Assembly: GCF_000011125.1 (NCBI RefSeq)
Contig: NC_000854.2
Location: 1,410,001 to 1,442,000, forward strand
Origin: Aeropyrum pernix K1
GTDB taxonomy: Archaea > Thermoproteota > Thermoprotei_A > Sulfolobales > Acidilobaceae
Reading direction: 5' to 3'
Length of the DNA stretch: 32,000 bases
Shown: piece by piece, positions 3,181-25,066 of the stretch
Layout of the letters: each line of letters begins with the position of its first letter
Position numbering within the stretch: the first letter of the stretch is position 1
Made by a program: the position numbers and the translations under genes
Notes under the pieces: model-generated
Told to the model about the DNA's origin: nothing
The model's database searches: none
Seen by the model: the letters and a program-made list of their open reading frames with translations, nothing else

Positions 3181-5094
3181 TTATGTATGGTGCTGGGGCA
3201 CGGGCTTGGGAAGCTCCCCCGCCGCCCTTTCGAGGAGCTTCATATAGTACTGCCTGTCTATGCTCCCAGGAGGCCCTAGCCATACTGGGTGCGGCCTCCC
3301 TCCACCCGCTACAACGTATTTCACCGTTGGCGTCTGAACGGGGCTTTTGAGCCACGCCCTCCTCCAGGGAGTGTTTCTAGAGGAGCCCGGGTCCACCCTC
3401 TTCTCTATGACAAGCTTCTCGACCGGCGGCTCCCCCTCCCTGAGCAGCCTCATATACCCATCTACCACCTTCCAAGCCCTCTCCACCGCCCCAGGCCACT
3501 CCCCGGGGTGCCTGGCCTCCGCCAGCCTCGCTATCGCGGAGGCCTGTGCCTCCCTCACTATCTCCGGCGTGTCCCGCCTGACGGCCGCTATCCCCTTCAG
3601 CTTCACACCCCCGCTCTCGAGGGCCCCGTAGTACTTGTTTACCGCGCCGTGGCCCCTCAGGGTCGGGGGTATGTAGAGCCACTTGTACTCCGCCTCTATC
3701 TTCACCGGAACACCGGTCCTCCTCTCGATCTCCCTTGCCACCTCCCCCGGGGGGCCGCGGGGCTCGACGGGCTGTATGAAGACGGAGTCGACGAGGGAGT
3801 GGATAACCCTGTACCCCATCTCCACAGCCGCCTCCTCGGCGGCGGCCAGGGCCCTCCTGGCGGCGGCCGTCACCGTCTCGTAGGCTGCTATGCTGCCGAA
3901 GAGGCTGTTCCTGAAGCCGAGGTAGCCGAAGCCCGAGACCAGTATCCACTTTATAGCCTCCTGCTCCTCCCCGGCCCCCCGCCTCCTCGCCTCCTCCCTG
4001 AGGTCCACCAGCCTGCCGAGGACCTCGGGCACCAGCCCCCTCCTATCCATACACACCCTGTGGCCCCCGTAGCCGGGCGCGGGGTCTAGGGTGTTCCCGC
4101 ACGGCGTGTCGACAGTCTCAGCGCTTATGTTGTACATCGCTATGAGCCTGGGGTAGAGGCTGGAGTAGTCCAGCTGTACAACCCCCCAGTAAACACCGGG
4201 CTCGGGCAGCCTAGCAGCCCCCGGCATGTCAGACTCCACAAGGCTCCTGAGGCTCCTGAACCTCTCGTGCCGGGGCGCACGCTCGTCCAGGAGGTACCTC
4301 CTCCTATAAGCCTCCCTAGCCTCAGCCGCGGTCAGCACCCTGCCTATAGGGGCTCCATGGGCCATTGTGTAGGGCAGCCAGGATATCCTCATCCACACTA
4401 TGAGGCCCCGAGGCCCCACCAGGTTCCTGTCGGGCTCGAACCACAGGTACTCACGGAACCGGGAGGAACCCTCAAGAATCAGCCTCACCGGGCTCCTGGC
4501 AACTACTACATGGGGCCTACAGCCCCTGAGCACATCCAAAGCCCCGTCAACACCACCCACCGCCTCCTCCCAGCCTCCACACACTACCCTGAACCGCCCA
4601 GGCTTCTCCAGGGGGCTGGATATGGGGCCGTGCCAGGAGTAGGCCTCCACCACAGCCAAAGACAGGACCCCATAATCATCGAGGGGGCCGCACACCCTGC
4701 CCAGGAGGCAGCCGGGGCGGAGGCCCAGGCGCCAGAGGACCTCCACCAGGGGGCCTGGATACCTGTTAACCCTCCTAGCAACGCCCCGGGCCTCGAGGGC
4801 CGAGGCCACACGCCCAACCCCTCTCCACCCGCCCTCCACAACAACGACCTCCACCAGCCTGTCATACCTGGGGGGAGACAGCCAGTCCTCCACCCAGGCC
4901 TCCACACCCTCCGCCTCCACGCCCCGGGCCAGGGTGCTGGCATCCGTGTTGATGGGGAGTAGGTAGGCGCGGGCCGCCGCCTCGACATTCAGGGCCTCGA
5001 GCCCCCCGCCCGGCGATGCTACTGTTAGCTGGAGCAGCCTGCCGCCGAGGGGCTCGGCGTCAAGTATGAGCCTCTCCCCCACCCTCCCCACCAC
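3181..5094 (-). CDS. polB2: family-B DNA polymerase, PolB2/Dpo2-like, exonuclease motifs degenerate
   Basis: Motif A is VVQLDYSSLYPRLIAMYNIS. Motif B is KWILVSGFGYLGFRNS. A KGIAAVRRDTPEI block is present. The motif C position reads YRVIHSLVDSVF. At 637 aa it has a short N-terminal half lacking a DxE ExoI motif. Confidence 0.85.
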   Translation of the reverse strand: MVGRVGERLILDAEPLGGRLLQLTVASPGGGLEALNVEAAARAYLLPINTDASTLARGVEAEGVEAWVEDWLSPPRYDRLVEVVVVEGGWRGVGRVASALEARGVARRVNRYPGPLVEVLWRLGLRPGCLLGRVCGPLDDYGVLSLAVVEAYSWHGPISSPLEKPGRFRVVCGGWEEAVGGVDGALDVLRGCRPHVVVARSPVRLILEGSSRFREYLWFEPDRNLVGPRGLIVWMRISWLPYTMAHGAPIGRVLTAAEAREAYRRRYLLDERAPRHERFRSLRSLVESDMPGAARLPEPGVYWGVVQLDYSSLYPRLIAMYNISAETVDTPCGNTLDPAPGYGGHRVCMDRRGLVPEVLGRLVDLREEARRRGAGEEQEAIKWILVSGFGYLGFRNSLFGSIAAYETVTAAARRALAAAEEAAVEMGYRVIHSLVDSVFIQPVEPRGPPGEVAREIERRTGVPVKIEAEYKWLYIPPTLRGHGAVNKYYGALESGGVKLKGIAAVRRDTPEIVREAQASAIARLAEARHPGEWPGAVERAWKVVDGYMRLLREGEPPVEKLVIEKRVDPGSSRNTPWRRAWLKSPVQTPTVKYVVAGGGRPHPVWLGPPGSIDRQYYMKLLERAAGELPKPVPQHHT

Positions 5095-6063: not shown

Positions 6064-6798
6064 CTACGGGTATTCCACGGCGTGTGCTTCGGTCTTGAAT
6101 CCGGCCGGGGTCACAACCTCTGCCACAGCCTTGAACGGCGTCTCAACCAGGAACACAAGGTTCTCGTCAACGTAGTGGTAGGGCTTGAGGTCCACGGTCT
6201 TGAGGGCCAACTGGAATATGCAGAAGCCTTTGAGCAGGCTGCCCTCCCGGACGTCGAACTCAACCCAGAACCCCTGCCACCGAGGCTCTTCCCTGCCGAA
6301 GATCTCGTACACAGCCTTCTTGGTGTAGCAGGAAGCCAGCGGCCCCCCATACCCCAGCTCCACCGTCTCCCTGCTCAGGTTGGCCAGTGTAATGTAGATG
6401 TCCAGAAGCGCGAGATCATCCACGCCATCCGCCCAGGCCTCGGGGACCCGGTCGCACAAGGCGGCTGAACTGGAGCTGCAGTACTCCTCCAGGAGGGAGA
6501 CAACGTTCCTCAGAAGACTCTCGTCGGTGTAGAAGCTGTAGATAACACGGACCTTCAGCCCGTCCGCAGTAAACTCGTACTCAATAACCTTAGAGGGCTC
6601 GAAACCCTCGATAACGCTAGTCCTGCCAGAGAACTCGCCTGTAGGCAGCATAAAATCGGGGCTGGAGCTTCCAGGCGATAGCAGGAAGTAGGCCGCGGAG
6701 GCCACGGCTAGGAGAGCAGCTATAGCCGCTGCAAACAGCAGGAAGCCGCCTGGCCAGCGCCACTCGAGGATGGGCAAAGGAAGCCCCCAACGATACAT
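6064..6798 (-). CDS. hypothetical protein with N-terminal membrane anchor
   Basis: Hydrophobic N-terminal segment GGFLLFAAAIAALLAVASAAYFLL followed by a balanced soluble domain. No family recognised. Confidence 0.55.
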   Translation of the reverse strand: MYRWGLPLPILEWRWPGGFLLFAAAIAALLAVASAAYFLLSPGSSSPDFMLPTGEFSGRTSVIEGFEPSKVIEYEFTADGLKVRVIYSFYTDESLLRNVVSLLEEYCSSSSAALCDRVPEAWADGVDDLALLDIYITLANLSRETVELGYGGPLASCYTKKAVYEIFGREEPRWQGFWVEFDVREGSLLKGFCIFQLALKTVDLKPYHYVDENLVFLVETPFKAVAEVVTPAGFKTEAHAVEYP

Positions 6799-6930
6799 AA
6801 TTGGCGAAACCCCGTTTTTAACAAGCCTGACACGAACACCCAGCCGCTAGCTATAGATACAACGTATCCCATCTTAACCTATTCTCCACGATAATTGTGA
6901 GCTTCAAAGCAGCAGTTCCGACTCTCTTGT

Positions 6931-7521
6931 CTAGCCGTTGCCGCTTGTAACAAGTGCTCTGGTAAGGTCTACTAGGTTGTCCAGCTCTTCCTGCTGTATT
7001 TCAAAGGGGTTTACTCTGCTTCCCGCCCTCTCCAGGATGGCGGCTATTCTCTGCAAGGCTTCACCGTCTTCCGAGAGCCTATTTACAATGTACGGGTGCT
7101 CCTTCCCTGTGAGGTCTGCGAAATACACGGATAGGCTCCCGTATACTAGATACCATTTCTTATAATGTTCGCCGCCCTCCAAATCATACAAAGCCTTACT
7201 AAATGTTGCCAGCGCCTTCGAGTTAACCATCGCCTCGGCAACCAGGAAGCGCGTCCTATCAGGGTCACCGTTATAGCTGCTGGCAAGCGCCATAATGTCG
7301 TCAGCCAGGATGGAGACGTGGAATCCCGAACCCTCTACCAGGCTAACGGCAACCCTCTCTTCGGTTCTAACATACTCTAGGTTAGCGTACGCGCTAATAG
7401 CTAAAGATGTAAGTAACAAGCCAAACAGAACCTTAAACAGTGTAGCATTGCTAAGCCCATACAACACTCTGAACCCTGCTAATAATCTAAACAAATGCTT
7501 TGCCCATATCAACATTAACAA
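6931..7521 (-). CDS. hypothetical protein with N-terminal hydrophobic segment
   Basis: N-terminal hydrophobic stretch (LFKVLFGLLLTSLAISAYA) followed by a plausible helical soluble domain. It lies in the lower-G+C block. Confidence 0.5.
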   Translation of the reverse strand: MLMLIWAKHLFRLLAGFRVLYGLSNATLFKVLFGLLLTSLAISAYANLEYVRTEERVAVSLVEGSGFHVSILADDIMALASSYNGDPDRTRFLVAEAMVNSKALATFSKALYDLEGGEHYKKWYLVYGSLSVYFADLTGKEHPYIVNRLSEDGEALQRIAAILERAGSRVNPFEIQQEELDNLVDLTRALVTSGNG

Positions 7522-8393
7522 AATAGGGATGAAGGGACACTATTATAAACCACAATAGCTCTATCAGCAAAAACACGGGGAAAAGCTGCCGCTAATCGTG
7601 TCTCCCGAGCTGGCTGGGGCATACAGGAATTTTTAGGCGGAAGCTTGGTAGGGCTTAGAAGCTAAAAGTAGTTGTAGAACGGAGCTATGCAGAATTGAAC
7701 AACCGCCTTTGACATATGTCATCTTCATAGTTTTGAGTTCACAATGATACTGTGTGTAAAGCTCTGGATGAAAGAGAAATGATAATATGCATCATGAAAT
7801 CGGCTGATGCGCCACGGGACGATTACAGGAGGCAGGAGATGCTAGACGTAGCCCAAAGGCTAGATGTCCATGGCAAGGCAGAGCCTTAGGGGCGAGAAAA
7901 CGCGGAGGGTATACCATAACATGATAGGTAGGTCTAGTTCTAGTATGGTTGATTACAGGACGCTAATTCATGCAGCCAATGGATTTTGAGGGCGTGGAGA
8001 TGTGAAGCTGATGTGAATATACGACAGTACGATATAGCTAGTAGACGCTGTTAATAATATTTTTAATAGAATACACAAGAAGAACTTGCCCCCTCCAAAG
8101 GTGGCTTGGCGGAGACAGGGAGGAGACTGCGAAAGTGAGGCATGGGCAAGCTGTGTACCATGCGTGAAGCGTGTTTAGCACCAGGTCACTGCGTATTTGG
8201 GAGAGCGTATCAAGGAAGAGCTGGGGACCCGAAAAGAAGGCTATGTAATGGTAAGCTTAGTGTTGTGCTAAAGGATAAAGTCCTATGGCGTCTCCTGTCC
8301 TAGCCCATGATGACTAGCATATAGTTGAAATAATGGGAACCCTGATCGGAGCTTTCGAGATTGTTTTCACTCAAGTAGTTCGGTAACGAATTT

Positions 8394-8398
8394 AAAAA
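8394..8398 (-). terminator. T5 tract just downstream of the adh stop codon
   Basis: Plus-strand AAAAA (TTTTT on the minus strand) lies 9-13 nt after the adh stop codon (8407..8409). Oligo-T tracts are the usual archaeal termination signal. Confidence 0.45.
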
Positions 8399-8406
8399 GA
8401 AGAGAG

Positions 8407-9486
8407 TTAGGGTATCAGGACTGCCCTGCCTAGAACTTCACCTTTCTCTAGCCTCTCAAGCACATCGTTTATTTCATCTAGCTTGTGGATATCAACCTCT
8501 ACCCTGACCTTACCCTGAAGGGCTAACGTGACTAGCTCATGGAGCTCTACATAGTTTCCTACTAGGCTTCCTTCAAAGGATACCTCAGAGGATATCACCC
8601 TGATCGTGGGGAATCTAAGCTCACCCCCATAGCCTACGATGATAAGCCTCCCCATCCTCCCTAGCAGGTATGGTGTATAATCGACTGTAGCCTGAGAGCC
8701 TACGAAGTCCATTGCAACGTTAACTCCTCTCCCCCTGGTAAGCTCCATGACCTGCTTTACAGGGTCTCGTCTAGCGTCAACCACGTGATCCGCTCCAAGC
8801 CTCTCGGCCAGCTTTAGTTTTTCTTCCTTAACGTCCAGTGCTATCACCGTCGCGGGTGTCATAACTTTAAGTAGCTGAACTGCAATATGACCTAATCCTC
8901 CCACGCCCACTATAGCGACGTATGCGCCGGGATAGAGGGTTCGGGCGGCCTTCTTAACAGCCCTATAAGCCGTTATCCCAGCGTCCGCTAGAGGGGCCAT
9001 TTCAACAAGTTTCTCCCTGCTAATATCCTTAGGCAGCTTTATCACAGACCTGTGCGAGGTCCTCATGAACTCTGCAAATCCACCATCGATATTAAGTCCT
9101 GGGAACTCTAGGTTCTCGCAGTGCATATCCTCACCAGCTCTACAGGCTAGACAGGTTCCATCTGTGACCGCCGGGTGAAGAATTACCGGGTCCCCCTTCT
9201 CTAAGCCTTCCACTCCTTCGGCAACTTCTTCAATATACCCGACGTTCTCATGGCCTAAAGTGTAGGGTAGCTTAGGCTGCAATAGCTCATGCCACATTCC
9301 CTGGACAAGGTGGAGGTCCGTATGGCATACGCCAGCGCCTGCAATCCTTACAATAACGTCAAATCTACCTTCTAGCCTCGGATAGTCGACATCCTCTATC
9401 CTCAACGGCTTGTTATACTCGTGGAGCCTGGCAGCTTTCAAACGCTCCACCCCTAGGCTCTGCGAGAAGTCTTGCTCTATTCTCAC
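8407..9486 (-). CDS. adh: zinc-dependent (medium-chain) alcohol dehydrogenase
   Basis: GAGVCHTDLHL and GHENVGYIEEV zinc-ligand motifs, the CLACRAGEDMHC structural-zinc loop, and the VGVGGLGH Rossmann motif. From memory the sequence matches A. pernix ADH. The native start may be the internal TTG that gives MKAARLHEY. Confidence 0.95.
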   Translation of the reverse strand: MRIEQDFSQSLGVERLKAARLHEYNKPLRIEDVDYPRLEGRFDVIVRIAGAGVCHTDLHLVQGMWHELLQPKLPYTLGHENVGYIEEVAEGVEGLEKGDPVILHPAVTDGTCLACRAGEDMHCENLEFPGLNIDGGFAEFMRTSHRSVIKLPKDISREKLVEMAPLADAGITAYRAVKKAARTLYPGAYVAIVGVGGLGHIAVQLLKVMTPATVIALDVKEEKLKLAERLGADHVVDARRDPVKQVMELTRGRGVNVAMDFVGSQATVDYTPYLLGRMGRLIIVGYGGELRFPTIRVISSEVSFEGSLVGNYVELHELVTLALQGKVRVEVDIHKLDEINDVLERLEKGEVLGRAVLIP

Positions 9487-9522
9487 CTTTGACAGAGCAC
9501 TCTTTTAAGCATTCCACTTATG

Positions 9523-9528
9523 TTTAAA
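9523..9528 (-). promoter_or_regulatory. TATA-like element (TTTAAA) upstream of adh
   Basis: AT-rich divergent intergenic region. The element lies 37-42 nt upstream of the GTG at 9486. Confidence 0.35.
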
Positions 9529-9552
9529 CCGTACAAAAGCTAAACAAAACAC

Positions 9553-9559
9553 TTTATAT
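9553..9559 (+). promoter_or_regulatory. TATA-like element (TTTATAT) upstream of the amidohydrolase gene
   Basis: It predicts a transcript start near 9581..9586, where the amidohydrolase frame opens (9585). This fits a leaderless or near-leaderless mRNA. Confidence 0.35.
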
Positions 9560-9602
9560 GAGATCTCTAAGAAGTATTAATTAGTGGCGTTGGGGTGGGA
9601 CT

Positions 9603-10697
9603 ATTATCATAGTTGAAACACCCGATGGAAAAAGACATGAGATCCTAGTTATAGACTATCATACCCACATATGGAGAGGTGAGAGAGATAACTGGCTAAG
9701 GCCAAACCTGGCTAAGGGCTGGATGGACTGCTTCTACGACTATCACAAGTCCTTAAGCCCCGACGAGTATGTTTGGGACTACGAAGAATTCCTCTACTAC
9801 GGATCCGATAAGTTCATTAAAGATGTTTTCGTCGATGGAGGAGTCGATATAGCGCTTTCGCAGCCAGCATATCTCCAGTTTTTCTTCAGAGAACCATTCG
9901 GCAACACTAACGAGTTCGGGACTATGGCTCTAAAGTATCCCTACAGGTTCATCATAGGTACAAGATGGGATCCTAGGGAAGGAGAAGAGGGTAAGAGGCA
10001 GTTGGAGGAGGATGTTAGGAAGTATAGGGTTAAGCCGTGGCAGATGAGACATGTTAAGCTCTATACTGCTGAGTGGAAAGAGGTTAATGGCGGTATTAGC
10101 AGGGGTTGGAGGCTTGATAGCCCGCAAGCTTTCGAATTCCTCGAGTTCAATAGGGAGCTCGGTATAGATATACAAGTCCCCCATAAAGGCCCTACGGTAT
10201 GGCCTCTAAGTAAGGACGCATTTGATGTACACGACGTAGACACGGCAGCATCCTCGTTCCCTGAGCTAAGGTTCGTAGTCACCCACGTAGGACTTCCAAG
10301 GATAGATGATTTTTCATGGATAGGAGTCCAGGATAAAAATGTGTATGCAGGCCTAGCAGTGGCCACAGCGTTTATCAGGAAGAGGCCAAAATACTTTGCA
10401 GAGATAATGGCCGAGCTACTCTTCTGGCTGGGGCCAGACAGGATAATCTTCGGGAGCGACTACGCAATCTGGCATCCCAAATGGATTATCGAGGACTTCA
10501 TAAAGTTCGAGCTACCCAGGGATTTAGAGAGCGAATATGGTGTCGAACTCACACTTGAGAATAAGAAGAAGATTCTAGGCGAGAACGCCGCCAGACTATG
10601 GGGTATTGACGTGGAGGAGGCTAAGAAGGCTGTGAGGGAGGATCAGATAGCGAGTAGATATGGCGCCAAACCTCGAGTCTTTAAGGTTGAGGGCTAA
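9603..10697 (+). CDS. amidohydrolase-2 / metal-dependent TIM-barrel hydrolase family protein
   Basis: The listed ORF starts at ATG 9723, but the same frame is open from 9585 and encodes TIIIVETPDGKRHEILVIDYHTHIW, which contains the family's HxH metal motif. There is no in-frame ATG/GTG/TTG upstream, so the start coordinate is provisional (ATT/ATC/ATA at 9603..9611). Downstream, VVTHVGLP and IFGSDYAIWHP are typical family blocks. Confidence 0.75.
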   Translation: MIIVETPDGKRHEILVIDYHTHIWRGERDNWLRPNLAKGWMDCFYDYHKSLSPDEYVWDYEEFLYYGSDKFIKDVFVDGGVDIALSQPAYLQFFFREPFGNTNEFGTMALKYPYRFIIGTRWDPREGEEGKRQLEEDVRKYRVKPWQMRHVKLYTAEWKEVNGGISRGWRLDSPQAFEFLEFNRELGIDIQVPHKGPTVWPLSKDAFDVHDVDTAASSFPELRFVVTHVGLPRIDDFSWIGVQDKNVYAGLAVATAFIRKRPKYFAEIMAELLFWLGPDRIIFGSDYAIWHPKWIIEDFIKFELPRDLESEYGVELTLENKKKILGENAARLWGIDVEEAKKAVREDQIASRYGAKPRVFKVEG

Positions 10698-10721
10698 AGA
10701 CCTCGTAGCTGTTAGAGGGGA

Positions 10722-11600
10722 TTGTGTCTAGCTGTAGATGGATGGTTTGAGGGTATTAGGTTGGTTTCGAAGAGCGATATTGTCAGGGCCTTAGAGGCTG
10801 TTAGGGATCCTGAGCTAGACATCCCCATAACCGAGCTGGGTCTGATTGACTCGATCACCACCGGCAGCGGGGAGGTCGTTGAAGTGACTATAAGGATGCC
10901 CACGTATTGGTGCTCCCCGAACTTCACCTACATGATCGTTGAAGACGCTAGAAAGGCTTTGGAAAAGCTGGTAGGTCCTGCTAGGGTTAAGGTGTTTCTT
11001 AAAGATCACCACGATGGGGAGAGGATCACGAAATGCGTTAACTCCGGGCTAAGATTTGAGGAGTGCTATCCGGAGGAGGCTGGAGAGGGGTTAGAAGGGT
11101 TAAGGGCTAGGATGAGGGAGAAGGCGTTCCTAGCCAGGCTACACGGGCTAATCAGGATCCTGTTAAGGAAGGGTCTGACCCTCGGGGAACTTGAGAGGCT
11201 GAGACTAGAGGACCTAGAGGTTTCCCAGGGGTCAGTGACTATTCGGGGGGCGAAGCGTATCACACTTGAGTCCATGGAAGCTGACCGCATAGTAGAGTAT
11301 ATCGGGATGCTAAGGGAAGCCGGAGTGACTCGAGGCCCTCTCTTAAGACGGAACTTAAGAGGCGAGCCCTTAGGAAAGGAAAAGATGGAACTACTCTTTA
11401 GTAGGGCGAGACTCACAGCAAGCACCCTATCCTTCAATGCCGAGCTATGTAAGCTATTGATGAATACCCGTAAACTCTCTTCTACTCCTCGAGGAAAAAT
11501 TAGAGGTCGAGCTATTGCTCCAGACCCTGCTCAGCACCCTGACTATCCTGGGTATGAGACAGCAGGGCAAGAAGCTCCCGAGGATCAGGCTTCTCCCTAG
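10722..11600 (+). CDS. DUF59 (MIP18/PaaD-like) domain protein with long C-terminal extension
   Basis: The N-terminal IVRALEAVRDPELDIPITELGLIDSI...VEVTIRMPTYWCSP is the DUF59 signature. The remaining ~190 aa are unassigned, and the last ~50 aa are low-complexity. Confidence 0.6.
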   Translation: MCLAVDGWFEGIRLVSKSDIVRALEAVRDPELDIPITELGLIDSITTGSGEVVEVTIRMPTYWCSPNFTYMIVEDARKALEKLVGPARVKVFLKDHHDGERITKCVNSGLRFEECYPEEAGEGLEGLRARMREKAFLARLHGLIRILLRKGLTLGELERLRLEDLEVSQGSVTIRGAKRITLESMEADRIVEYIGMLREAGVTRGPLLRRNLRGEPLGKEKMELLFSRARLTASTLSFNAELCKLLMNTRKLSSTPRGKIRGRAIAPDPAQHPDYPGYETAGQEAPEDQASP

Positions 11601-11662
11601 CCCCCGTCAAACGTCTAACAAACTCCAGCGAATTCACCCACACTACAAAGTTATGTACTTCC

Positions 11663-11968
11663 TTAGGGAGGCAGCATGCTTAAGAAGAAGGCGGCTATCA
11701 CACCCGCCCCTAGGGTCCCCCCGGCCAGCACCGGCACCAGGAGGGCCCAGGGCCCTAGCTTCCTATCGAGAAGCCATGATACGAGGGAGAGGAGGCCCCA
11801 GACGAGCAGAGAAGGGGGTAACAGCAGGGCCATCTCCACTACTAAGATGTAGAACCCCGGATCAATTGTGAGGCTGAGATCCCTGAGGTCGAGCAGGATG
11901 AATGTTAGAGCAGCGCCCAGAACGTAGAGGATGGGGGTGCTGTACCAGGTCAGCCTCAGCAACCTCAA
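11663..11968 (-). CDS. small membrane protein (about 3 TM segments), hypothetical
   Basis: Three hydrophobic stretches (ILYVLGAALTFILL, LLLPPSLLVWGLLSLVSWLL, ALLVPVLAGGTLGAGVIAAFFL). TTG start. Confidence 0.4.
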   Translation of the reverse strand: MRLLRLTWYSTPILYVLGAALTFILLDLRDLSLTIDPGFYILVVEMALLLPPSLLVWGLLSLVSWLLDRKLGPWALLVPVLAGGTLGAGVIAAFFLSMLPP

Positions 11969-12028
11969 GCAAGAGACCCCCGGGAAAAACCGTAATTTAC
12001 AGGTTTACTTACCGTTTCTTATAATGCA

Positions 12029-12418
12029 TTAGTACCTGACGTCCATGTACATCTTGAGCGCTGTGATGGCAGCAAGCATGGTCTCCGCGTTTGTGGGCAG
12101 CGGCCCGGGGTACTCGGGATCCATGTCGTTGCCCTCGGTTATAAACTCTAGGTAGTCTGGCCTGAAGCCTGCGACCTCGAAGCCTCCGTCAGGCGCCACG
12201 TTATAGGCTACTATGAAGCCGCCGGTGTGGTCGTTTTAAACATGTACTCCCACGTGTCCGAGGATCATGTAACAGCCGCTCCCGCCCCACCGGGCTTTTA
12301 GAAGGACTTTCACCCAATAGGCGTTACTTGGTACCCTAGAGTTTATTGAGGCATAAAACGACTTAGCAGCCAAGAGGTGAACAGGGGGCGAGATTGATGA
12401 AAACAACAGGAGGTAAAT
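12029..12418 (-). pseudogene. interrupted ORF (in-frame TAA at 12236..12238), unknown family
   Basis: My hand translation of the minus strand gives ...LLLFSSISPPVHLLAAKSFYASINSRVPSNAYWVKVLLKARWGGSGCYMILGHVGVHV*NDHTGGFIVAYNVAPDGGFEVAGFRPDYLEFITEGNDMDPEYPGPLPTNAETMLAAITALKMYMDVRY*. The protein-like reading continues through the stop in the same frame. There is no ATG/GVG start; the only candidate is TTG at 12404..12406. Confidence 0.4.
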
Positions 12419-12721
12419 TCATCTGTTAAGTTCCTTCTAGGCCTGTTAGTAATGCTATACTTGCCTATTGTAAACGCTATTGTTACAACACAAAAATCAG
12501 GATTTAATAAGAGATTAGTAATAAATTTGAATAAGGCCCTTACGGCAAAGCAGAGTCGTCACTTAAAAGTAGGCTTGGAAAACCACACTACAAAGGTTCT
12601 GATACTTAACCCCGCTCAGCCTTAAATAGCGCTCTATGAAAGCCATCGGGTCTGCCCTATCCACCTTCAATTATGAATACGCGGTCCCTTTGATTGGCTG
12701 GGATGACTTTAGGATGGTTTG

Positions 12722-12800
12722 TGGGGCCCGGGCCGGGATTTGAACCCGGGACCTCCGGATCCACAGTCCGGCGCTCTATCCAGGCTGAGCTACCCGGGCC
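12722..12800 (-). tRNA. tRNA-His: tRNA-His (anticodon GUG), with encoded G-1 and 3' CCA
   Basis: The reverse complement is G-GCCCGGG-UA-GCUC AGCCUGGAU AGAGC-G-CCGGA CUGUGGA UCCGG-AGGUC-CCGGG UUCAAAU CCCGG-CCCGGGC-C-CCA. It forms a full cloverleaf. The anticodon loop CU-GUG-GA gives His. The extra 5' G opposite C73 is the tRNA-His hallmark. Confidence 0.9.
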
Positions 12801-16329: not shown

Positions 16330-17241
16330 TCAGCCTTTCAGTCCGCCGCTGTACGCCTCGAGGAGGAGCCTCTGTGTCAGGACGAAGAACACTATCGTGG
16401 GGAGGAGGTAGAATGTGCCGGCCGCCGCGATTATTGTTAGCTGGTAGTTCTCCGCGGCCGCCACTATCTCCTCTATAAAGGTCGGCAGGCTGTCTATGCC
16501 GAATGGTTTGAGGAAGACGTAGAAGTAGATGAACTCCTCCCATCCCGCTAGGAACGTGAATATGAGGACGGCCGCTATGCCCGGTTTTACCAGGGGGACT
16601 AGTATGCTCCACCACACCCTAACCCTGCTTGCCCCGTCAACGAGGGCGCTCCACTCGAGCTCCCAGGGTATCTTGTCGAAGAACCCTTTGAAGAGCCAGA
16701 TCGCCATGGGCACCTCGAGGGCGGCCCTGGCCAGTATTATGTAGGCTATGGCGTAGAACTCCTCCCCCAGGACGCCGAGGACGTCGCCTATTATCCTGAA
16801 TATCATGTACACGCCTATGATCAGGGCTACCCCCGGGAAGGCGTGGAGCATTATGAGGCCCGCCGTAAACACGCCTCTGCCCTTGAACTCCATCCTGGAT
16901 ATACTGTAGGCCGCTAGTAGTGACACTAGGGTTGCTGTGAGGGCGACGCCGACGGCGACTGTGAGTGTCACGAGGGTCATCTCGACTACGTTCCTCTCGA
17001 GGCCTCCGGTGGCGTAGGTTATCTGGCCCCTGAGGAACATTATCCAGTTATCGAGGGTCGGCTGGAAGTCGGTTAGCAGAGGGTCGGTCACCATATTCGT
17101 GCTGAAGCTGCTCAGTATGAGGAGCCCGTACGTCAGTATTATTGGGCTGCCGGCTAGTAGTAGTGCCAGGGCTATGACTATCTTAAGCCTCCTAGAGATG
17201 CTTCCGCTTACAACCTCCTCCAAGGGGTTCCCGCTCATCAT
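16330..17241 (-). CDS. ABC transporter permease (carbohydrate type, MalG-like)
   Basis: Multi-TM protein with the EAA-loop region EWSALVDGASRVRVWWSILVPLVKPG. It overlaps the upstream permease gene by 4 nt. Confidence 0.9.
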   Translation of the reverse strand: MMSGNPLEEVVSGSISRRLKIVIALALLLAGSPIILTYGLLILSSFSTNMVTDPLLTDFQPTLDNWIMFLRGQITYATGGLERNVVEMTLVTLTVAVGVALTATLVSLLAAYSISRMEFKGRGVFTAGLIMLHAFPGVALIIGVYMIFRIIGDVLGVLGEEFYAIAYIILARAALEVPMAIWLFKGFFDKIPWELEWSALVDGASRVRVWWSILVPLVKPGIAAVLIFTFLAGWEEFIYFYVFLKPFGIDSLPTFIEEIVAAAENYQLTIIAAAGTFYLLPTIVFFVLTQRLLLEAYSGGLKG

Positions 17242-18182
17242 ATGTCACCCCTGGGCCTGGTTATCATCCTCTGGAACCCGAGTATCCTAAGTGTTACTAG
17301 GCCGAGGATGGCGCCTATCACAACCAGCACGGTAGCGGCGGCAGCGGCAAGACCCTGCCTGAGCTCTCCCACCGGTAGGAAGGCTAGGTTGAACACTAGG
17401 AGGCTCCAAGTCTGACCCCAGGTCCTGTCTACAACGCCCCACTCGTAGAGGAGGAATATGTGGGTGTAGGTTGTCAGGAGGCTCAGCATCTGCCAGACGG
17501 TCACGAAGAGGAGGTGCCACCTTATCATCGGGACTATTATCCTCCTAATTATCACCAGGTTCGAGGCGCCGTCAACCCTGGCCGCCGCTATATACTCCCA
17601 TGGTATGCTCCTTATGGCGCTGTAGAACACGATCATTCCGAAGCTAACACCCACTAGGCCGTTGACGAAGATGAGTATCCACCAGGTTCCTAGGGGGAGC
17701 ATGTAGCTACCCCAGTTTATCGGCTTATCTATAACCCCGGCTAGGAGGAGTATCCTGTTTAGTGTTCCTATCGCGTCGCTGTGGAAGAAGTAATACCAAA
17801 GGAGGCTGTAGACGGCTACAGGCGTCATACGCGGAAGCAGCCAGAGGAGTCTGTAGTGGATTGAGATCCTCTCCTCGAGGAAGAACGTTAGGATGGCGAG
17901 GGTGAGCCCGCCAAGAACGTTAACTACTAGTGTGACGGCAACGAAGACCACTGTGGTTATAAGGGCGTTCCTAAACATGGGATCGTACTTAGCGAAGTGG
18001 ACGAGAACCTTGTAGTTGTACAGGCCCACTATGTCGAAGAGATAGGCGTCAACGTTCCAGTTCCTCATGTTAGTGAAGCTTGTATAGACGGTGAGTAGCA
18101 GGGGGAGGAAGAAGAACGTGATAACTATAAGCAGTGCGGGGCCCAGGAAAAAAGCCAGTGTGAAGAGTCTATCCAGCCTCAA
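17238..18182 (-). CDS. ABC transporter permease (carbohydrate type, MalF-like)
   Basis: Multi-TM protein with the EAA-loop region AAARVDGASNLVIIRRIIVPMI. Confidence 0.9.
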   Translation of the reverse strand: MRLDRLFTLAFFLGPALLIVITFFFLPLLLTVYTSFTNMRNWNVDAYLFDIVGLYNYKVLVHFAKYDPMFRNALITTVVFVAVTLVVNVLGGLTLAILTFFLEERISIHYRLLWLLPRMTPVAVYSLLWYYFFHSDAIGTLNRILLLAGVIDKPINWGSYMLPLGTWWILIFVNGLVGVSFGMIVFYSAIRSIPWEYIAAARVDGASNLVIIRRIIVPMIRWHLLFVTVWQMLSLLTTYTHIFLLYEWGVVDRTWGQTWSLLVFNLAFLPVGELRQGLAAAAATVLVVIGAILGLVTLRILGFQRMITRPRGDI

Positions 18183-18197
18183 CCCCCTCTATACCCC

Positions 18198-19949
18198 CTA
18201 GGGGCTTATCTGCCATCCTGAAGGTATGCTGCCGACGATCTCTATAGTCTCGGCGAGCTCGGGGTCGGCCCTTATCTTCTGGACTACATAGTTGGTAGCC
18301 TCCTCGGGAGTCATCTGTCCCTTCAGCACGAAGTCGACAGCGTCCTTAAAGAACTCTGCAAGCGGCTGGTACGAGGGGTGTAGCGGCGGTATGTGCGTAT
18401 ACTCCAGCATGTAGGTCACATTCTTAAGGAACTCTATGTTAATCGGGTGGGCCGTCTTCTTTGCTATCTCCACGAACGCCTCCCTGGCCTCGTCAGACAC
18501 GAACATGTCCAGGTTGCCCTGAGCTAGCTTGCCTACGAACTCCTGGTCGTCCATCAGCAGGGCCGCCTTCTCCCTGATCGGAATGTGGGCGCTCACAATG
18601 CTGTGTATCGCCACGAGGTCGGGATCGTTGGCCTTAAGAATCAGGAGGAATGCTATCCTATGGTAGGCCTCCTTCAGATCGTCATACTTCGGGTTCAGCT
18701 TCCCGGCGTTTGCGCTTATCATCCAGACGAAGGGCTGGCTCAATGTAACCGGGCTCTTACCCGGCTCTCCCGCGGGGAAGAGGCTGTAGGCGAATCTCTC
18801 CTTCACCTCCTCCGGCGTTAGACCCCTCTGCTCCCCCGTCTGCGGGTCCGTGTAGTACTTCTTAGTCTGCCACTCGGTCCAGTACCAGGTGCCGCCTATG
18901 TCGAAGGCGGTTTTAGCAGAGACTATGGTGGGGTGTATCTGCTTGGCCCAGTCCCACTCCAGCATGTTCTCGGGGGTGAGACCATTCCTGGCGAGTGCAT
19001 ACTCTACGGCGAGCCACTTGTAAAGGGCCTCAAGGTTGAGGTACAGCTTGTCGGGGTCGCTGCCGGTGAACTCGCCTCCGAATGCATAGTAGAACTGCAC
19101 TAGATCGGGGTGTGCACTGCCCTTCCTGTGTATAACACCCCACTCGGAGCAGCCCTTATCGACTGCCTCCTTGGCAATCCTCATCACATCCTTCCAAGTG
19201 TACTCGCCAGAGTCTATCTTCGCCGCAATATCCCACGCGTCGTAGCCGAGGCACTCCATGACGGGCTTCAGTATATACAGGGGCCTTGCCTCTGTGTCCT
19301 GGGGGAGGGCGTAAATCCTCCCCTTGTAGGTCACGCTGCTCCACAGGCTATCGTAGTAGTCCTCCAGCTCGCTGCCCATATAGGCGTTAGCGTAGTCCGT
19401 TATGTCAAGGAGGTATCCCTCCTTGGCGAACGTTGATATCCACCTGTAGCTAACGGCGATTATGTCTGCCTCCTGCTTTAGGGGGAAGCTCTGCTGGAAG
19501 ACCTTCGCAGGCTCGTCTGCGTTGGCCGAGAACTTTATATCCTCGATAACTATCTTGAAGTTGACGCCCTCCTCTTCCAGTATCTTGTTAAGCCTCGCGG
19601 CAGCTTCCACTATACCGTAAACCCTCATGATACTGTTTGGATCGCCAGAACCGTGCACCCTATACTTGGCTTCCGTGACGCCGTTGGCAGAGAGGTACCG
19701 GGCTATGTTGACTATATCCTCGCGCACATTCCCGGTTAAAGGTTTAAGCTCGACCATCTGGGCTTCGGTTTTAGTGGCGGGAGTTGTCTCTGCAGCAGTC
19801 TCCGTCTCTGTTTCAACAGTCTCTGGGGCTTGCCTCGTCGCAATGTATAGGGCCGCGGCAATTATGGCTATGAGGATGACGGCCGCCGCTATGTAAATAG
19901 TAGTCCTGTTAGTCTGGAACCCCATCCCGATATCCCCCCCGCCCTTCAT
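18198..19949 (-). CDS. extracellular solute-binding protein of the sugar ABC system, membrane anchored
   Basis: N-terminal TM segment (IYIAAAVILIAIIAAALYIA) followed by a Thr/Glu-rich linker (ETVETETETAAETTPATKTE) and a large W/Y-rich soluble domain. It is the first gene of an operon with the two permeases. Confidence 0.75.
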   Translation of the reverse strand: MKGGGDIGMGFQTNRTTIYIAAAVILIAIIAAALYIATRQAPETVETETETAAETTPATKTEAQMVELKPLTGNVREDIVNIARYLSANGVTEAKYRVHGSGDPNSIMRVYGIVEAAARLNKILEEEGVNFKIVIEDIKFSANADEPAKVFQQSFPLKQEADIIAVSYRWISTFAKEGYLLDITDYANAYMGSELEDYYDSLWSSVTYKGRIYALPQDTEARPLYILKPVMECLGYDAWDIAAKIDSGEYTWKDVMRIAKEAVDKGCSEWGVIHRKGSAHPDLVQFYYAFGGEFTGSDPDKLYLNLEALYKWLAVEYALARNGLTPENMLEWDWAKQIHPTIVSAKTAFDIGGTWYWTEWQTKKYYTDPQTGEQRGLTPEEVKERFAYSLFPAGEPGKSPVTLSQPFVWMISANAGKLNPKYDDLKEAYHRIAFLLILKANDPDLVAIHSIVSAHIPIREKAALLMDDQEFVGKLAQGNLDMFVSDEAREAFVEIAKKTAHPINIEFLKNVTYMLEYTHIPPLHPSYQPLAEFFKDAVDFVLKGQMTPEEATNYVVQKIRADPELAETIEIVGSIPSGWQISP

Positions 19950-20204
19950 GTATAATCTATTATAATTAGTTATAGGGGCAGAGATATTAAAGCTCCCCTT
20001 ACCTAAATTAATATTGAATATAAAATCAAGGAAAACATGAAATCTATTAAATAGTGTGTGAAGAAACTAGAAATTCTATTAAGACTTAATGATAAAAATT
20101 GTTTAAGAGTATCTCCCAAGCTTTGTGTATGATATAAGCGAGGTAAGGATAAAACGATCCTCAGGAGCATAATTGTTAAACGGTAGAGTTAGAGCGGATG
20201 CGAA

Positions 20205-20285
20205 GCTATGTATGATGACACGGGGCTTCCTCGACGCCTCCCGCAGACGGGTGGTGTATGAAGAAAGGTAGAGACGCTGACTCAG
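20205..20285 (+). ncRNA. candidate C/D-box sRNA (weak)
   Basis: C box ATGATGA (20212..20218), 12-nt spacer, TCGA (20231..20234, degenerate D'), TGAAGA (20259..20264, degenerate C'), 12-nt spacer, D box CTGA (20277..20280). The D'-C' gap is 24 nt, longer than usual. No terminal stem seen. Confidence 0.2.
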
Positions 20286-20397
20286 AAATAATCCATAAAT
20301 TTTCTGGCAGCAGTAGCTTCTAAAGCTTCTAACTTGCAAGGAACTCCTAACAGAGATTACCCCGGATATCTGCGACATCCTCATAGTTTAGAGCTTC

Positions 20398-21366
20398 TCA
20401 CGCTGTTCGGATACAGTCTTCAGGGAAGGCTAGTCTTCTGATATATTCGGCTAGGTATCTAGCCCTTGCTGGCTCTAGCCTATAGGAGTTGTCCGGGAGT
20501 CTGGAGGCTAGGCCCATAGCCTCTGCTATATATATTATCCAGGCATAGCCTGGGAGGTCCTCCGGTGATATTTTACTCTTTGAAGCGAGTGCTTCCACGG
20601 CATCTTCCAGGAGATGCTGGTCTACCTGGGGTGAGAGCCTTATTATGGGGATGAATACTGGCTTCCTCGCGGCTTCATGTATATAGTAGGCGGCGGATGC
20701 TCCTGCCAGGGAGCCGGCTAGGAGTAGGGCTCCCGATTCCGGCTTGAAGCCGCCAGTTAGGTTCAGCAAAACAACGTTACCTCTACCAATCCTAACCTTT
20801 ATGTCGCAGTAAGCCTCACGCACGAGGTTTGATAGCCCTTCGAAGAGCCTATCAAAAACACCTAGACCGGTTACCTGTTTTGAATACGTTTTTACATGGC
20901 ACAACCTTTCTAGAAAACCTTTTACGATCTCTGCCGAAACTCTGCCAGCATGAGTATCGGTGTGGTAGAGGATTGCCTCGTCAAGCATGGTAACACTACA
21001 ATCTTTAGTGCTCTGACTTATGAAATACTTCATCGCATTGAGTTCTGCGGAGTAGGCGAAGGGAGCGTAGCTTACAAGGGTCTCGACAACCTTCCATGCC
21101 TCGCTTCCTCGAGACAGCCTCCTACCACACTCTACATCATCCATCCTGCCAGGATCTATGCAGGGTTTAAGAGTCTCTAGAACATCTTTCAATACCGTGG
21201 GCTCTAGGCTCCTAACCGGTATGGAGCATGTGTTTTCTTTAAAGCATTTTGAAACTACTGTGTATGCGTTTCTGAGGACGCTTGTTCCTACTGAAATCAG
21301 GTGAGTGTAACCGCCCAAAGCAGCTGCCACCCCCACTTTCCTAATCGTTTTTGGCCTATTCTCCAA
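20398..21366 (-). CDS. CARF-domain protein, Cas_APE2256 family (possible Crn1-type ring nuclease or cOA-sensing regulator)
   Basis: THLISVGTSVLRN (21280..21294 encodes SVGTS), SAELNAMKYF, LNLTGGFKPES (TGGFK at 20743..20757) and AAYYIHE are the CARF/APE2256 signature blocks. The C-terminal ~70 aa could be a winged-helix-like domain. TTG start; an internal GTG is also possible. Confidence 0.85.
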   Translation of the reverse strand: MENRPKTIRKVGVAAALGGYTHLISVGTSVLRNAYTVVSKCFKENTCSIPVRSLEPTVLKDVLETLKPCIDPGRMDDVECGRRLSRGSEAWKVVETLVSYAPFAYSAELNAMKYFISQSTKDCSVTMLDEAILYHTDTHAGRVSAEIVKGFLERLCHVKTYSKQVTGLGVFDRLFEGLSNLVREAYCDIKVRIGRGNVVLLNLTGGFKPESGALLLAGSLAGASAAYYIHEAARKPVFIPIIRLSPQVDQHLLEDAVEALASKSKISPEDLPGYAWIIYIAEAMGLASRLPDNSYRLEPARARYLAEYIRRLAFPEDCIRTA

Positions 21367-21483
21367 GCCTAAACTATAGTAGTTGAGATATTTTGTAACG
21401 CAAGGCTAACGTTTTCACAATAGTCTTTAGGAACCTTGTAAGATATAAATATTTGAAGAGTTTTATCTAAAGTAAATAGTGCA

Positions 21484-21491
21484 TTATATAA
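21484..21491 (+). promoter_or_regulatory. TATA box (TTATATAA) for the peptide ABC operon
   Basis: It lies 19-26 nt upstream of ATG 21510, which fits a leaderless crenarchaeal mRNA. It sits in the divergent AT-rich region shared with the CARF gene. Confidence 0.5.
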
Positions 21492-21509
21492 GGCGGGGTT
21501 GATCATGAT

Positions 21510-23057
21510 ATGGCTTTAGCCAATACACGCGTTATCCTCGCCGCAATAATAGTTATCCTCGTCATCGCCGCCGGGTTTTACATATTGTTCTCCAGACAGC
21601 AGGCGGCAAACGTTATAGTGATAGGTACGACGGACGATGTGACGGAGCTCGATCCTGCCACTAGCTACGACTTCTTCACGTGGGAAGTTCTGAGCAACGT
21701 TATGGCGGGGCTAGTCACCTACGATCAGCAGGGCAACATTGTCCCCTACCTCGCCGAACGCTGGGAGTCCCAGGAGGGGGGGAAAGTATGGATATTCTAC
21801 CTGAGGCAGGACGCGAAATTCCCCGACGGTACGCCGTGTGATGCCGATGTAGTTGTCAGGAGTATAAAGAGGGTGATGACGATACAGGGGGACCCAAGCT
21901 GGCTTGTCACAGAGTTCGTGGAGAACGTTGAGGCCCTGGACCAGTGGACTGTCAAGTTCACACTAAAACAGCCCACAGGCTACTTCCTAGCTGTCGTGGC
22001 GACACCGCCCTACTACCCCGTCCACCCCAACTATCCTGAGGACCAGCCAGCGCCCGACGCTACATGGGGCGGCTGCGGTCCATACATGATAGACGAGTTC
22101 GTGAGGGATCAGTACCTCAGGCTAAAGCCGAATCCCAACTTCTTCGGCGAGGAGCCTAAGAATGACGGTGTGATAATAAGGTTCTACGAGGGCAGCGAGG
22201 ACCTCAGGAGCGCTCTAGAAGCTGGCGAGATAGACGTAGCCTGGAGAACCCTAAACCCCAGCGACCTTGAGGACCTCAGGAGTAAGGGGTACAATATTAA
22301 GGAAGTCCCGGGGCTTTTCATAAGGTATCTAGTGTTGAGGGTCTCACAGCCGCCGCTGGACAACGTGGCCGTAAGGCAGGCACTCGCAGCCGCCATAGAC
22401 AGACAGGACATAGTTGACAGGGTGTTCAGGGGCACTATGGAGCCGCTGTACAGTATGGTCCCCTCCGGTATGTGGGGCCACTACCCGGCATTCAAAGAGA
22501 AGTATGGAGAGGGCCCCAACATAGATCTCGCCCGGCAGCTCCTATCCCAGGCCGGGTACAGCGAGTCTAACAAGCTCCAGGTGGAACTCTGGTACACTCC
22601 CGAGCACTACGGAGACACTGAAGCCGCTCTCGCAGCAGTTATAAAGGAGCAGTGGGAGGCGACGGGCATGATAAGCGTGGAAATAAAGAGCAGCGAGTGG
22701 GGAACCTACGTAGACCAGCTCAGCAGCGGCCAGATGATGATAAGCCTCCTAGGCTGGTACCCCGACTATCTCGACCCGGACAACTTCCTAACACCCTTCC
22801 TGCTAAGCACGGCTAACTCGTGGACGGGAACAGGCTACGCCAACCCGCAGGTTGACGATCTTCTGAGGAAGGCTATGACTTCTTCTGACATGAACGAGAG
22901 GGCCCAGCTCTATAAGCAAGTCCAAGAGATACTGGCAGAGGAAGCACCCTTCATACCGCTGGTACAGGGCAAACTCTTTGTTGTAACGTCAACCGAAGTA
23001 ACGAGCATAGAGGTAAGCCCACTCCAGTTCCTGATATACTCAAGCATATCAAAATGA
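21510..23057 (+). CDS. ABC peptide/oligopeptide-type substrate-binding protein (family 5, DppA/OppA-like)
   Basis: N-terminal TM anchor. ERWESQEGGKVWIFYLRQDAKFPDGTPCDADVV is the typical family-5 block. WYPDYLDPDNF lies near the C-terminus. Confidence 0.9.
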   Translation: MALANTRVILAAIIVILVIAAGFYILFSRQQAANVIVIGTTDDVTELDPATSYDFFTWEVLSNVMAGLVTYDQQGNIVPYLAERWESQEGGKVWIFYLRQDAKFPDGTPCDADVVVRSIKRVMTIQGDPSWLVTEFVENVEALDQWTVKFTLKQPTGYFLAVVATPPYYPVHPNYPEDQPAPDATWGGCGPYMIDEFVRDQYLRLKPNPNFFGEEPKNDGVIIRFYEGSEDLRSALEAGEIDVAWRTLNPSDLEDLRSKGYNIKEVPGLFIRYLVLRVSQPPLDNVAVRQALAAAIDRQDIVDRVFRGTMEPLYSMVPSGMWGHYPAFKEKYGEGPNIDLARQLLSQAGYSESNKLQVELWYTPEHYGDTEAALAAVIKEQWEATGMISVEIKSSEWGTYVDQLSSGQMMISLLGWYPDYLDPDNFLTPFLLSTANSWTGTGYANPQVDDLLRKAMTSSDMNERAQLYKQVQEILAEEAPFIPLVQGKLFVVTSTEVTSIEVSPLQFLIYSSISK

Positions 23058-23183
23058 GTCTTACCCGATAACCCCTAAATCCTCCACAAAGCCTTTTTCC
23101 CTCACGCCGGCAGACTAGGCGGCAAACTTTTCCCCTCGCCCTCACCTTACCGGTATGTAGGCGGATGCGCGAAAGAATGGGGA

Positions 23184-24203
23184 GTGTGCCGGGTCTTGAG
23201 TTTGCTCCGCTACGCGGTCACCAGGGCTCTGGCTATAGTGCCTACAGTTCTAATCCTGTACACGGTAGTGTTCATAGTTTTGAGAGTAATACCCGGCGAC
23301 CCTGTAACTGCTGCGCTCGGGACCCGGAGCATACCGCCGGAGGAGCTAGAGGCCATTAGAGAGAGGCTAGGGCTCGACCAGCCTCTCTGGAGGCAGTACA
23401 TCGACTATCTTCTGGGCGTCATGAGGGGTGATTTCGGGGAGAGTATGACTCTCTACGGCAGGCCTGTCGCCAGGGATATCATGGAGAGGTTCCCCGCCAC
23501 TCTCGAGCTCACGATATTCGGGTTTATAGTGAGTGTCGTCCTGGGTGTGGGTAGTGGTGTGGTCGCCGCGTTTCGAGGCGGGCTCGTGGATAGGCTGCTG
23601 AGGACCTCGAGCATAGTAGCCTACACCCTCTTCATACCTTGGCTGGGGCTTATGCTGAAGTACGTTTTCAGCATAAAACTGGGAATACTCCCTACTGGGG
23701 GTAGGATAGACCCTAGGGTTAACCTTGACGTCGTGACTGGTCTCTACGTTCTGGATTCTATAATAACCGCCAACCCGGCCGCCCTGGTGAGTGCTGTTGA
23801 ACACCTTATACTACCCTCTCTAACACTGGGTATAGTCTTGAGCGGCGTCTACACGAGGCTAGTGAGGATACACGTTGCCGAGGCGCTCAGGAGCGAGGTG
23901 GCAGTAGCCTACAGGGCCCGGGGGCTCAGGGAGTCTAGGATAGCTGTGCACATGCTCAGGATAAGCCTCATACCAACGATAACTATGATGGGCCTCCAAT
24001 TCGCTATACTCCTGGGAGGGGCGGTTCTAACTGAGGCTACCTTCAGCTGGCCAGGCCTGGGGAGCCTTCTGGTGGAGAGGATATCCTATAGGGACTACAG
24101 CACCATACAGGGGGTTACAGTATTCTTCGCGTTCATGGTAGGCCTGGTGAGCCTTATCGTCGACATCATCTACGCTATAGTCAACCCCAGGGTTAGGTAC
24201 TAA
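23184..24203 (+). CDS. ABC peptide transporter permease (DppB-like)
   Basis: N-terminal LRYAVTRALAIVPTVLILYTVVFIVLRVIPGDP is typical of DppB/OppB. Multi-TM protein. Confidence 0.9.
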   Translation: MCRVLSLLRYAVTRALAIVPTVLILYTVVFIVLRVIPGDPVTAALGTRSIPPEELEAIRERLGLDQPLWRQYIDYLLGVMRGDFGESMTLYGRPVARDIMERFPATLELTIFGFIVSVVLGVGSGVVAAFRGGLVDRLLRTSSIVAYTLFIPWLGLMLKYVFSIKLGILPTGGRIDPRVNLDVVTGLYVLDSIITANPAALVSAVEHLILPSLTLGIVLSGVYTRLVRIHVAEALRSEVAVAYRARGLRESRIAVHMLRISLIPTITMMGLQFAILLGGAVLTEATFSWPGLGSLLVERISYRDYSTIQGVTVFFAFMVGLVSLIVDIIYAIVNPRVRY

Positions 24204-24217
24204 AGGTCAGGGGGTGG

Positions 24218-25066
24218 TTGCCAGTGCTTCCTGTTAGAAGCCTCCTCGCCGGACCTGGCTCGGGCTTCATAGCAGCGGGACTAGCTATAGTGGCGTTCTA
24301 CCTTGTTGTAGCCTTAGCGGCACCATACATAGCCCCCTATAGTCCCCACAGCAAGGTTAGTGACGTGCCGGAGCATCCATCACCCCCCTCTCTGAAGCAT
24401 CCTTTCGGCACCAACGAGATAGGCTACGACATGTTCTCTAGGGTCGTTCTAGGCACCAGGATAGTTTTGAAGGTGGTCCTACTCTCGAGCGTTATGGGGC
24501 TGGCCGTCGGCGTGCCCCTAGGCCTGGTAAGCGGGTATTTTGGAGGACCTGTAGACAGAGTTTTAAGCGTCGTCATGGACAGCCTATACGCCTTCCCCGG
24601 GATAGTGCTCGCCATAGCCATAGCCAGCGTGCTCGGGCCTAGTGTGCTGAACGCGGCCATAGCCCTGATGGTGGTTTACGTTCCAGCCTACTTCAGGATG
24701 ACTAGGGCCCGCGTTATCGAGATCAAAACACAGGATTACATAGTGGCTCTAAGGGTGCTAGGGGCCCCCCACTCGAGGATAATGTTCCGCCACGTGCTCC
24801 CGGGTGTCATGCCCACGGTCCTCGTCGTCTACGGCCTGGCCAGTGCAGACGCTATACTCACTGAGGCGGGGCTGAGCTTCTTCGGCCTGGTGGTCACCTA
24901 CCCAGCCCCCGACTGGGGGCTAGACATAAGCTATGGGATAAAGCAGTTTCTCTCCGGTAGCTGGTGGCTAACACTGTTCCCGGGACTCGCGATACTAACC
25001 CTAGCACTAGGCTTCGCAATGATTGGAGAGGGCCTCGCAGAGAGGTTCAGAGCAAGGGCTGTCTAG
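24218..25066 (+). CDS. ABC peptide transporter permease (DppC-like)
   Basis: HPFGTNEIGYDMFSRVVLGTR is the DppC/OppC N-terminal block. Multi-TM protein. Confidence 0.9.
   Translation: MPVLPVRSLLAGPGSGFIAAGLAIVAFYLVVALAAPYIAPYSPHSKVSDVPEHPSPPSLKHPFGTNEIGYDMFSRVVLGTRIVLKVVLLSSVMGLAVGVPLGLVSGYFGGPVDRVLSVVMDSLYAFPGIVLAIAIASVLGPSVLNAAIALMVVYVPAYFRMTRARVIEIKTQDYIVALRVLGAPHSRIMFRHVLPGVMPTVLVVYGLASADAILTEAGLSFFGLVVTYPAPDWGLDISYGIKQFLSGSWWLTLFPGLAILTLALGFAMIGEGLAERFRARAV

Follow-up and report, generated by a model that had tools for sequence, protein, structure and literature searches.

What could a stand-alone gene for an APE2256-family CARF protein be doing between two ABC-transporter operons of Aeropyrum pernix K1, and what might keep it there? 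The window that we analysed, a stretch of 32,000 nucleotides (contig NC_000854.2, positions 1,410,001 to 1,442,000), holds this gene divergent from a dpp/opp-type operon and upstream of a sugar-type ABC operon. The original prediction placed it in an AT-rich pocket away from any CRISPR array or cas gene, and both parts of that description hold. A recount confirms 12 G or C among the 60 nucleotides of 20041..20100, and local G+C in 500-nt windows is 0.41-0.50 against 0.563 for the genome. No tandem repeat array occurs in the 32,000-nt window, and no cas family was found among the 30 ORFs scanned there or in the same region of a sister strain. An Rfam scan of 19900-21600 returned no match.

The protein is probably shorter than the longest ORF listed in Table 1. 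Its database copies start at residue 11 (GTG 21336, 312 aa) or 17 (TTG 21318, 306 aa), and homologues in an 85-sequence alignment begin aligning at about residue 17-21, which suggests an N-terminus 10-16 residues shorter and TTG 21318 or GTG 21336 as the probable real start. The divergent promoter region shared with the dppA-like gene had been put at 143 nt, a figure that stands if the longest ORF is taken as the start and does not with the later starts; the spacer is accordingly 143-191 nt. TATA-like AT tracts lie within 21434-21509, a stretch conserved with a complete genome of the same genus (G003).

Table 1. Coordinates of the CARF7 gene, its domains and the segment around it (window positions; residues in the numbering of the longest ORF)
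Feature	Position	Strand	Basis or remark
Longest ORF, CARF7/Cas_APE2256 gene	20398..21366	-	322 aa from TTG; stop codon 20398-20400
CARF (Rossmann-like) domain	20635..21318	-	Sis0811 alignment, invariant columns, AF2 model
Ser29 codon	21280-21282	-	in CARF domain
Lys208 codon	20743-20745	-	in CARF domain
Predicted C-terminal winged-helix-like domain, ~78 aa	20401..20634	-	Sis0811 alignment, AF2 model, Foldseek whole-chain match to Sso1393/Sis0811
Segment holding the gene, 1153 bp	20281..21433	.	194 unrelated bp at the syntenic G003 site
Spacer to divergent dppA-like gene	21367..21509	.	21434-21509 kept in G003; 21367-21433 belongs to the insert

The predicted assignment to the APE2256 family is upheld by three family models. 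The protein matches PF09651 (Pfam Cas_APE2256; E=1.6e-38, 132 bits against a cut-off of 24.8), TIGR02619 (E=1.4e-64, 216 bits against 37.45) and, over its full length, the PADLOC model CARF7--CARF (E=6.5e-139, model positions 2-277 of 278), where membership in CARF7 rests on the PADLOC model name and the citations in PMC12409355. All four signature blocks, SVGTS (Ser29), SAELNA (106-111), TGGFK (Lys208) and YIHE (228-231), map to columns of the 85-sequence alignment that are invariant or conserved to at least 90%, and the family motifs GTS, SAELNA, NLTGGFKPE and YYIHE are each found in the protein. It agrees with all 24 columns conserved at 90% or more and with 42 of the 43 conserved at 70% or more, counts that carry the caveat that the family alignment was seeded with the A. 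pernix protein itself. The NCBIfam equivalog NF040951 ('CRISPR system ring nuclease') scores 43.3 bits, far under its cut-off of 600; by this strict model the protein does not rank as a close orthologue of those Sulfolobales enzymes that have been characterised. Because PF09651 matches this genome once only, and because the 90%-identity cluster of the protein includes a 303-aa A. pernix member (assembly GCA_004323575.1), the gene is most likely APE2256, the namesake of the family. A literature search on 'APE2256' returned incidental mentions only, and no account of an orphan Crn1 gene from Aeropyrum came to light. Both the family and the chemistry that it performs are already well known, and finding such a gene is in itself ordinary.

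The closest solved relative by sequence is Sis0811 of S. islandicus (7pq2; E=7e-13), with Sso1393 of S. solfataricus (3qyf) also recovered and the alignment spanning the C-terminal domain. With the family alignment as input, AlphaFold2 gave a model of mean pLDDT 93.8, for which Foldseek ranks 3qyf and 7pq2 first (E of about 1e-13 over about 300 columns), followed by Cami1 and, remotely, Csa3. These two 'long' Crn1 enzymes (Sis0811, 7pq2/7pq3, and Sso1393) have their two-domain architecture and their fold in common with the A. pernix protein, as well as the catalytic Ser and Lys, most cA4-contacting residues and a homodimeric state, observed or predicted. They differ from it in being only 21-23% identical (Foldseek) and in lacking about 20 residues that the A. 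pernix protein carries as a helical insert between the first strand and SAELNA. The 'short' Crn1 enzymes Sso2081 and Sis0455 belong to the same family and presumably share the same metal-independent cA4 chemistry (PMC8284326; PMC10018336), but they have no winged-helix (wHTH) tail and are faster enzymes (PMC10018336; PMC8643638).

In Sis0811, cA4 cleavage requires S12 and K169 (Molina et al., PMC8643638), and the ligand is contacted by N16, D75, T98, T100, S103, Y189 and Y191 (PMC8643638). Correspondences read from the HMMER alignment, in ORF numbering, place Ser29 on S12 and Lys208 on K169, in agreement with the catalytic pair named in the original prediction; Asn33, Thr136, Thr138 and Tyr228 fall on N16, T98, T100 and Y189. 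Two positions count against equivalence of the active sites, as Y191 is replaced by His230 and S103 aligns to a Gly. The CARF domain thus holds Ser29, Asn33, SAELNA (Ser106-Ala111), Thr136, Thr138, Lys208, Tyr228, His230 and Glu231. A homodimer model scored 0.83 against 0.00 for the best control, with runs agreeing on at least 88% of contacts and a partner pLDDT of at least 85; the mark is reached by 20 of 30 solved homodimers and 1 of 23 single chains, a calibration that is rough here since a custom alignment was used. Since like complexes are already solved, the score may echo those structures, and we take the model as a measure of likeness rather than of binding. The predicted interface comprises the GGFKPE loop and helix, the YYIHE hairpin and residues 260-268 and 289-297 of the C-terminal domain, and a dimeric CARF fold with a single cA4 pocket is what the model predicts.

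The C-terminal segment of about 78 residues aligns to the wHTH domain of Sis0811 and is modelled as helices and a beta wing with pLDDT >90, consistent with the winged helix that had been suspected there. Such a tail, on a gene flanked by two transport operons, could make the protein a cOA-responsive transcription factor that governs those operons through its winged helix, and this co-option had been one of the two functions proposed for it. The divergent arrangement and the tail itself fit that reading, as does the distant fold match to Csa3, the CARF-wHTH regulator of type I-A systems, in which a CARF domain is likewise followed by a winged helix (Foldseek E 3.6e-5, TM 0.26-0.28). Csa3 is not known to have ring-nuclease residues. 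The A. pernix CARF7 protein has no Pfam match to Csa3_N or MarR, and the PF22662 and MarR matches that the genome's own Csa3 shows are both absent from it. Its C-terminal domain is acidic (pI 4.99), and the third helix of that domain (YAWIIYIAEAMG) has no Lys and no Arg and, in the dimer model, is predicted to be buried in the interface. In Sis0811, the way in which the wHTH is arranged gives no support to docking of dsDNA, and that domain appears to modulate activity (PMC8643638). In G003, moreover, both ABC operons are adjacent and syntenic with only 194 bp between them, and no PF09651 gene exists anywhere in that genome. We therefore consider a role as regulator of the neighbouring transport genes highly improbable.

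Characterised Crn1 enzymes degrade cA4 that the type III system of their own host makes (PMC8284326), whereas the A. pernix protein appears to have no such partner. The K1 genome is a single contig of 1,669,696 bp (56.3% GC, 99.9% complete). A k-mer scan located three CRISPR arrays, at about 717, 787 and 1277 kb, and the sole cas locus, with Cas1 at 784.7 kb, is of type I-A; it encodes Csa1, Cas4, Csa3, Csa2/Cas7, Cas3, Csa4/Cas8a and Cas6 and lies 645 kb from the CARF7 gene. Whole-genome profile searches for Cmr2, Csm1, RAMP, Cas10 palm, Csx1_CARF and SMODS gave no match while control genomes were positive in each, although a very divergent cyclase would escape such profiles. With each of the 21 proteins encoded by three related type III loci as tblastn query, only the CARF7 gene was matched, and the rest stayed at E >=0.086. 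The original prediction had also allowed for a ring nuclease that serves, in trans, a distant type III system. Across the order, PF09651 genes do keep company with type III markers, and some copies lie far from their type III locus; in this finished genome, which has neither Cas10 nor RAMP nor Csx1 matches, we find the idea scarcely credible. No cognate cOA-producing type III (Cas10) system was found; the genome has a type I-A locus only, and neither a cOA synthase nor an effector activated by cOA could be recognised in it, so that the enzyme seems to be stranded without its partner.

Two of the three arrays, at 717248-718997 and 1277299-1278486 of the chromosome (G000:C1), share one common 24-nt repeat, GAATCTTCGAGATAGAATTGCAAG, in opposite orientations, and the ORFs scanned within a few kb of them (five per array) are housekeeping genes with no cas gene among them. 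In the array beside the type I-A locus, at 786657-789355, the repeat is another one, of 25 nt. The two orphan arrays might rely on service in trans, or they might be remnants of a second system that was lost.

How unusual this situation is can be gauged from 199 genomes of the order, each at least 90% complete. PF09651 is present in 61 of them and Cas10-palm or RAMP markers in 109; type III markers accompany 53 of the 61 carriers as against 56 of the 138 non-carriers, an odds ratio of 9.7 that is descriptive only, as related genomes are not independent. Eight carriers have no type III markers (G000, G002, G039, G052, G069, G126, G152 and G165). A. pernix K1 (G000) is the only single finished contig among them; the copy in G039 is a fragment, and the other exceptions are draft assemblies, each in 30 to 140 contigs, that may have failed to capture a type III locus. 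Orphan genes of this kind have a counterpart in an unrelated CARF-like family, Csx15, about 25% of whose genes are orphans (PMC12409355). Like the A. pernix gene, an orphan csx15 is a ring-nuclease-family gene outside a type III locus (PMC12409355; PMC13148439), but orphan PfCsx15 sequesters cA4 rather than cleaving it (PMC13148439).

Comparison with G003 also bears on how the gene came to its present place. Window positions 17000-20280 and 21434-24498 are syntenic there at 86% and 83% identity, and the segment between them is exchanged for unrelated sequence (Table 1). The 194-bp filler in G003 yields no gene remnants (an 11-nt match only; tblastn E >10), and searches for repeats flanking the insert found short chance matches only, with no target-site duplication and no terminal inverted repeats. 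The composition of the gene is foreign to its surroundings, with a GC3 of 0.49 against 0.69-0.74 in the neighbouring genes. Its nearest relatives are P0003 (64% identity), P0004 (62%), P0005 (54%), and P0006 and the G031 copy (51-52%), after which identity drops to 36%; in a quick IQ-TREE reconstruction, the six-member clade that includes the A. pernix gene has 99% SH-aLRT support. P0003, P0004 and P0005 lie inside Cas10/Cmr/RAMP loci, with a Csx1 gene adjoining the first two, and the G031 copy adjoins a csx1 homologue; each of the four closest relatives whose flanks could be read thus has csx1 and/or Cas10/Cmr genes as neighbours. These four, from metagenomes and from a genome of another family in the order, are proteins of 293-307 aa with the same motifs and 51-64% identity along their full length; they differ from the A. 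pernix copy in not standing between transport operons. The other homologues in the genus (G001, G002 and G004) are only 35-43% identical and form a separate clade. No viral relatives were found in PHROGs.

Clade contexts, G003 synteny and GC3 together speak, in our view, for uptake of one gene out of an accessory module of type III. On this reading, the gene would have arrived once the G003 lineage had split off but while the A. pernix strains had not yet diverged. A second strain has it in the identical position, flanked by the same pair of operons. We infer the direction of the event, gain here rather than loss in the sister species, from composition and from one sister genome.

The same-genus copies of the other clade also occupy non-cas contexts. 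Those of G002 (L032, G002:C77) and G004 (L033, G004:C57) adjoin an SPFH/NfeD pair, with a Na+/solute symporter as the other neighbour in G002 and an enoyl-CoA hydratase in G004; that of G001 (L034, G001:C28) adjoins PdxS/PdxT. G002, 96% complete, has no Cas10 or RAMP match.

Several further features of the window were recorded. About 150 nt upstream of the sugar-binding-protein gene (19950-20100) are extremely AT-rich, are partly kept in G003 (for example TAAATTAATATTGAATA) and are probably the promoter region of the sugar ABC operon. On the plus strand, a C/D-box-like element at 20206-20280 (ATGATGA ... TCGA ... TGAAGA ... CTGA) is conserved with G003 and has no Rfam match; it stops exactly at the left edge of the 1153-bp insert, and the spacer around it is much more diverged. 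Farther away, a low-GC stretch (6500-12800; 0.43-0.53) ends at a tRNA-His gene (12722-12799, minus strand), and at the corresponding place in the other A. pernix strain, just past a DUF488 gene, there is a 455-aa integrase-like gene (L031 18686-20053), which suggests a strain-variable island at tRNA-His. A 637-aa ORF at 3181-5094 (minus strand), in a stretch of 64-68% GC, has a weak and partial match to family-B DNA polymerases (E=2.5e-14, profile positions 51-369 of 453); it could be a PolB paralogue that has diverged or lost its activity.

A gene stranded in this way might be a decaying relic without function. The genome offers it no partner system, and between the two A. pernix strains it differs at its C-terminal end, one copy being 3 aa shorter; its dN/dS, moreover, is 3-10 times that of the flanking genes (0.02-0.07), so that the constraint, though real, is weaker than on its neighbours and perhaps partly relaxed. 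Against decay stand an ORF intact in both strains and the pattern of substitution itself, with 14 synonymous and 9 non-synonymous differences (dS 0.067, dN 0.013, dN/dS about 0.20) and neutrality rejected (binomial p=1.8e-4). None of the changes between strains touches a conserved motif, and no conserved position has been lost. We judge a functionless relic quite improbable. Purifying selection argues for a useful role of the protein, which sits awkwardly with the notion that it has no substrate in this cell.

In another explanation, the CARF pocket is still in use but the gene now persists for the sake of a role that is new or lies outside type III CRISPR: degrading or sequestering cA4-like molecules from invaders or from an unrecognised cyclase, or tuning the pool of ligand for Csa3. 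The selection between strains and the intact ligand-binding and catalytic residues agree with it. So does the presence in the type I-A locus of Csa3, a protein with CARF and wHTH domains that is the only other CARF protein found in the genome and whose S. solfataricus counterpart binds cA4 (PMC8699464); sequestration of cA4 by orphan Csx15 offers a precedent (PMC13148439). The searches described above found no cOA source in the genome and no viral relatives of the protein, and 645 kb separate the gene from the type I-A locus with no physical link between them. On balance we hold such a role to be rather unlikely, if the least so of the alternatives.

We propose instead that the gene probably encodes a horizontally acquired, stranded and still active cA4 ring nuclease of the Crn1 type, in the CARF7 clade. 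The A. pernix lineage would have received it as one foreign gene out of an accessory module of type III CRISPR, and it would have come to lie between two ABC-transporter operons. Judged by homology, its product would form a head-to-head homodimer in which two CARF domains build one cA4 pocket, and would cleave cA4 without metal into two molecules of A2>P. The attack on the phosphodiester bond would come from a ribose 2'-OH. Stabilisation of the transition state would fall to Lys208, and Ser29 would have two tasks, positioning of the 2'-OH and stabilisation of the cyclic-phosphate product. In a host with no recognisable cOA synthase or effector, such an enzyme would be left without its cognate partner. 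Both the catalytic activity and the function on which selection acts are inferences here.

A bolder extension of the stranded ring nuclease is conceivable. A hyperthermophile that has no Cas10 may keep a competent cA4 ring nuclease because cA4-like signals reach it from outside its own CRISPR systems, the source being perhaps an unrecognised cyclase or an invader, and the enzyme, possibly together with Csa3, would then form a cOA circuit independent of type III. We regard this as decidedly unlikely.

Collectively, the locus presents a clean natural case: a finished genome with type I-A as its only CRISPR system and no recognisable cOA synthase or effector, which yet carries an intact, selected and foreign gene of the Crn1 type. 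It may be a place to test whether a ring nuclease stays active once stranded, and whether signals of the cOA kind occur apart from type III CRISPR. It is also a warning that APE2256-type genes should not be annotated as proof of type III signalling in the genomes that carry them.
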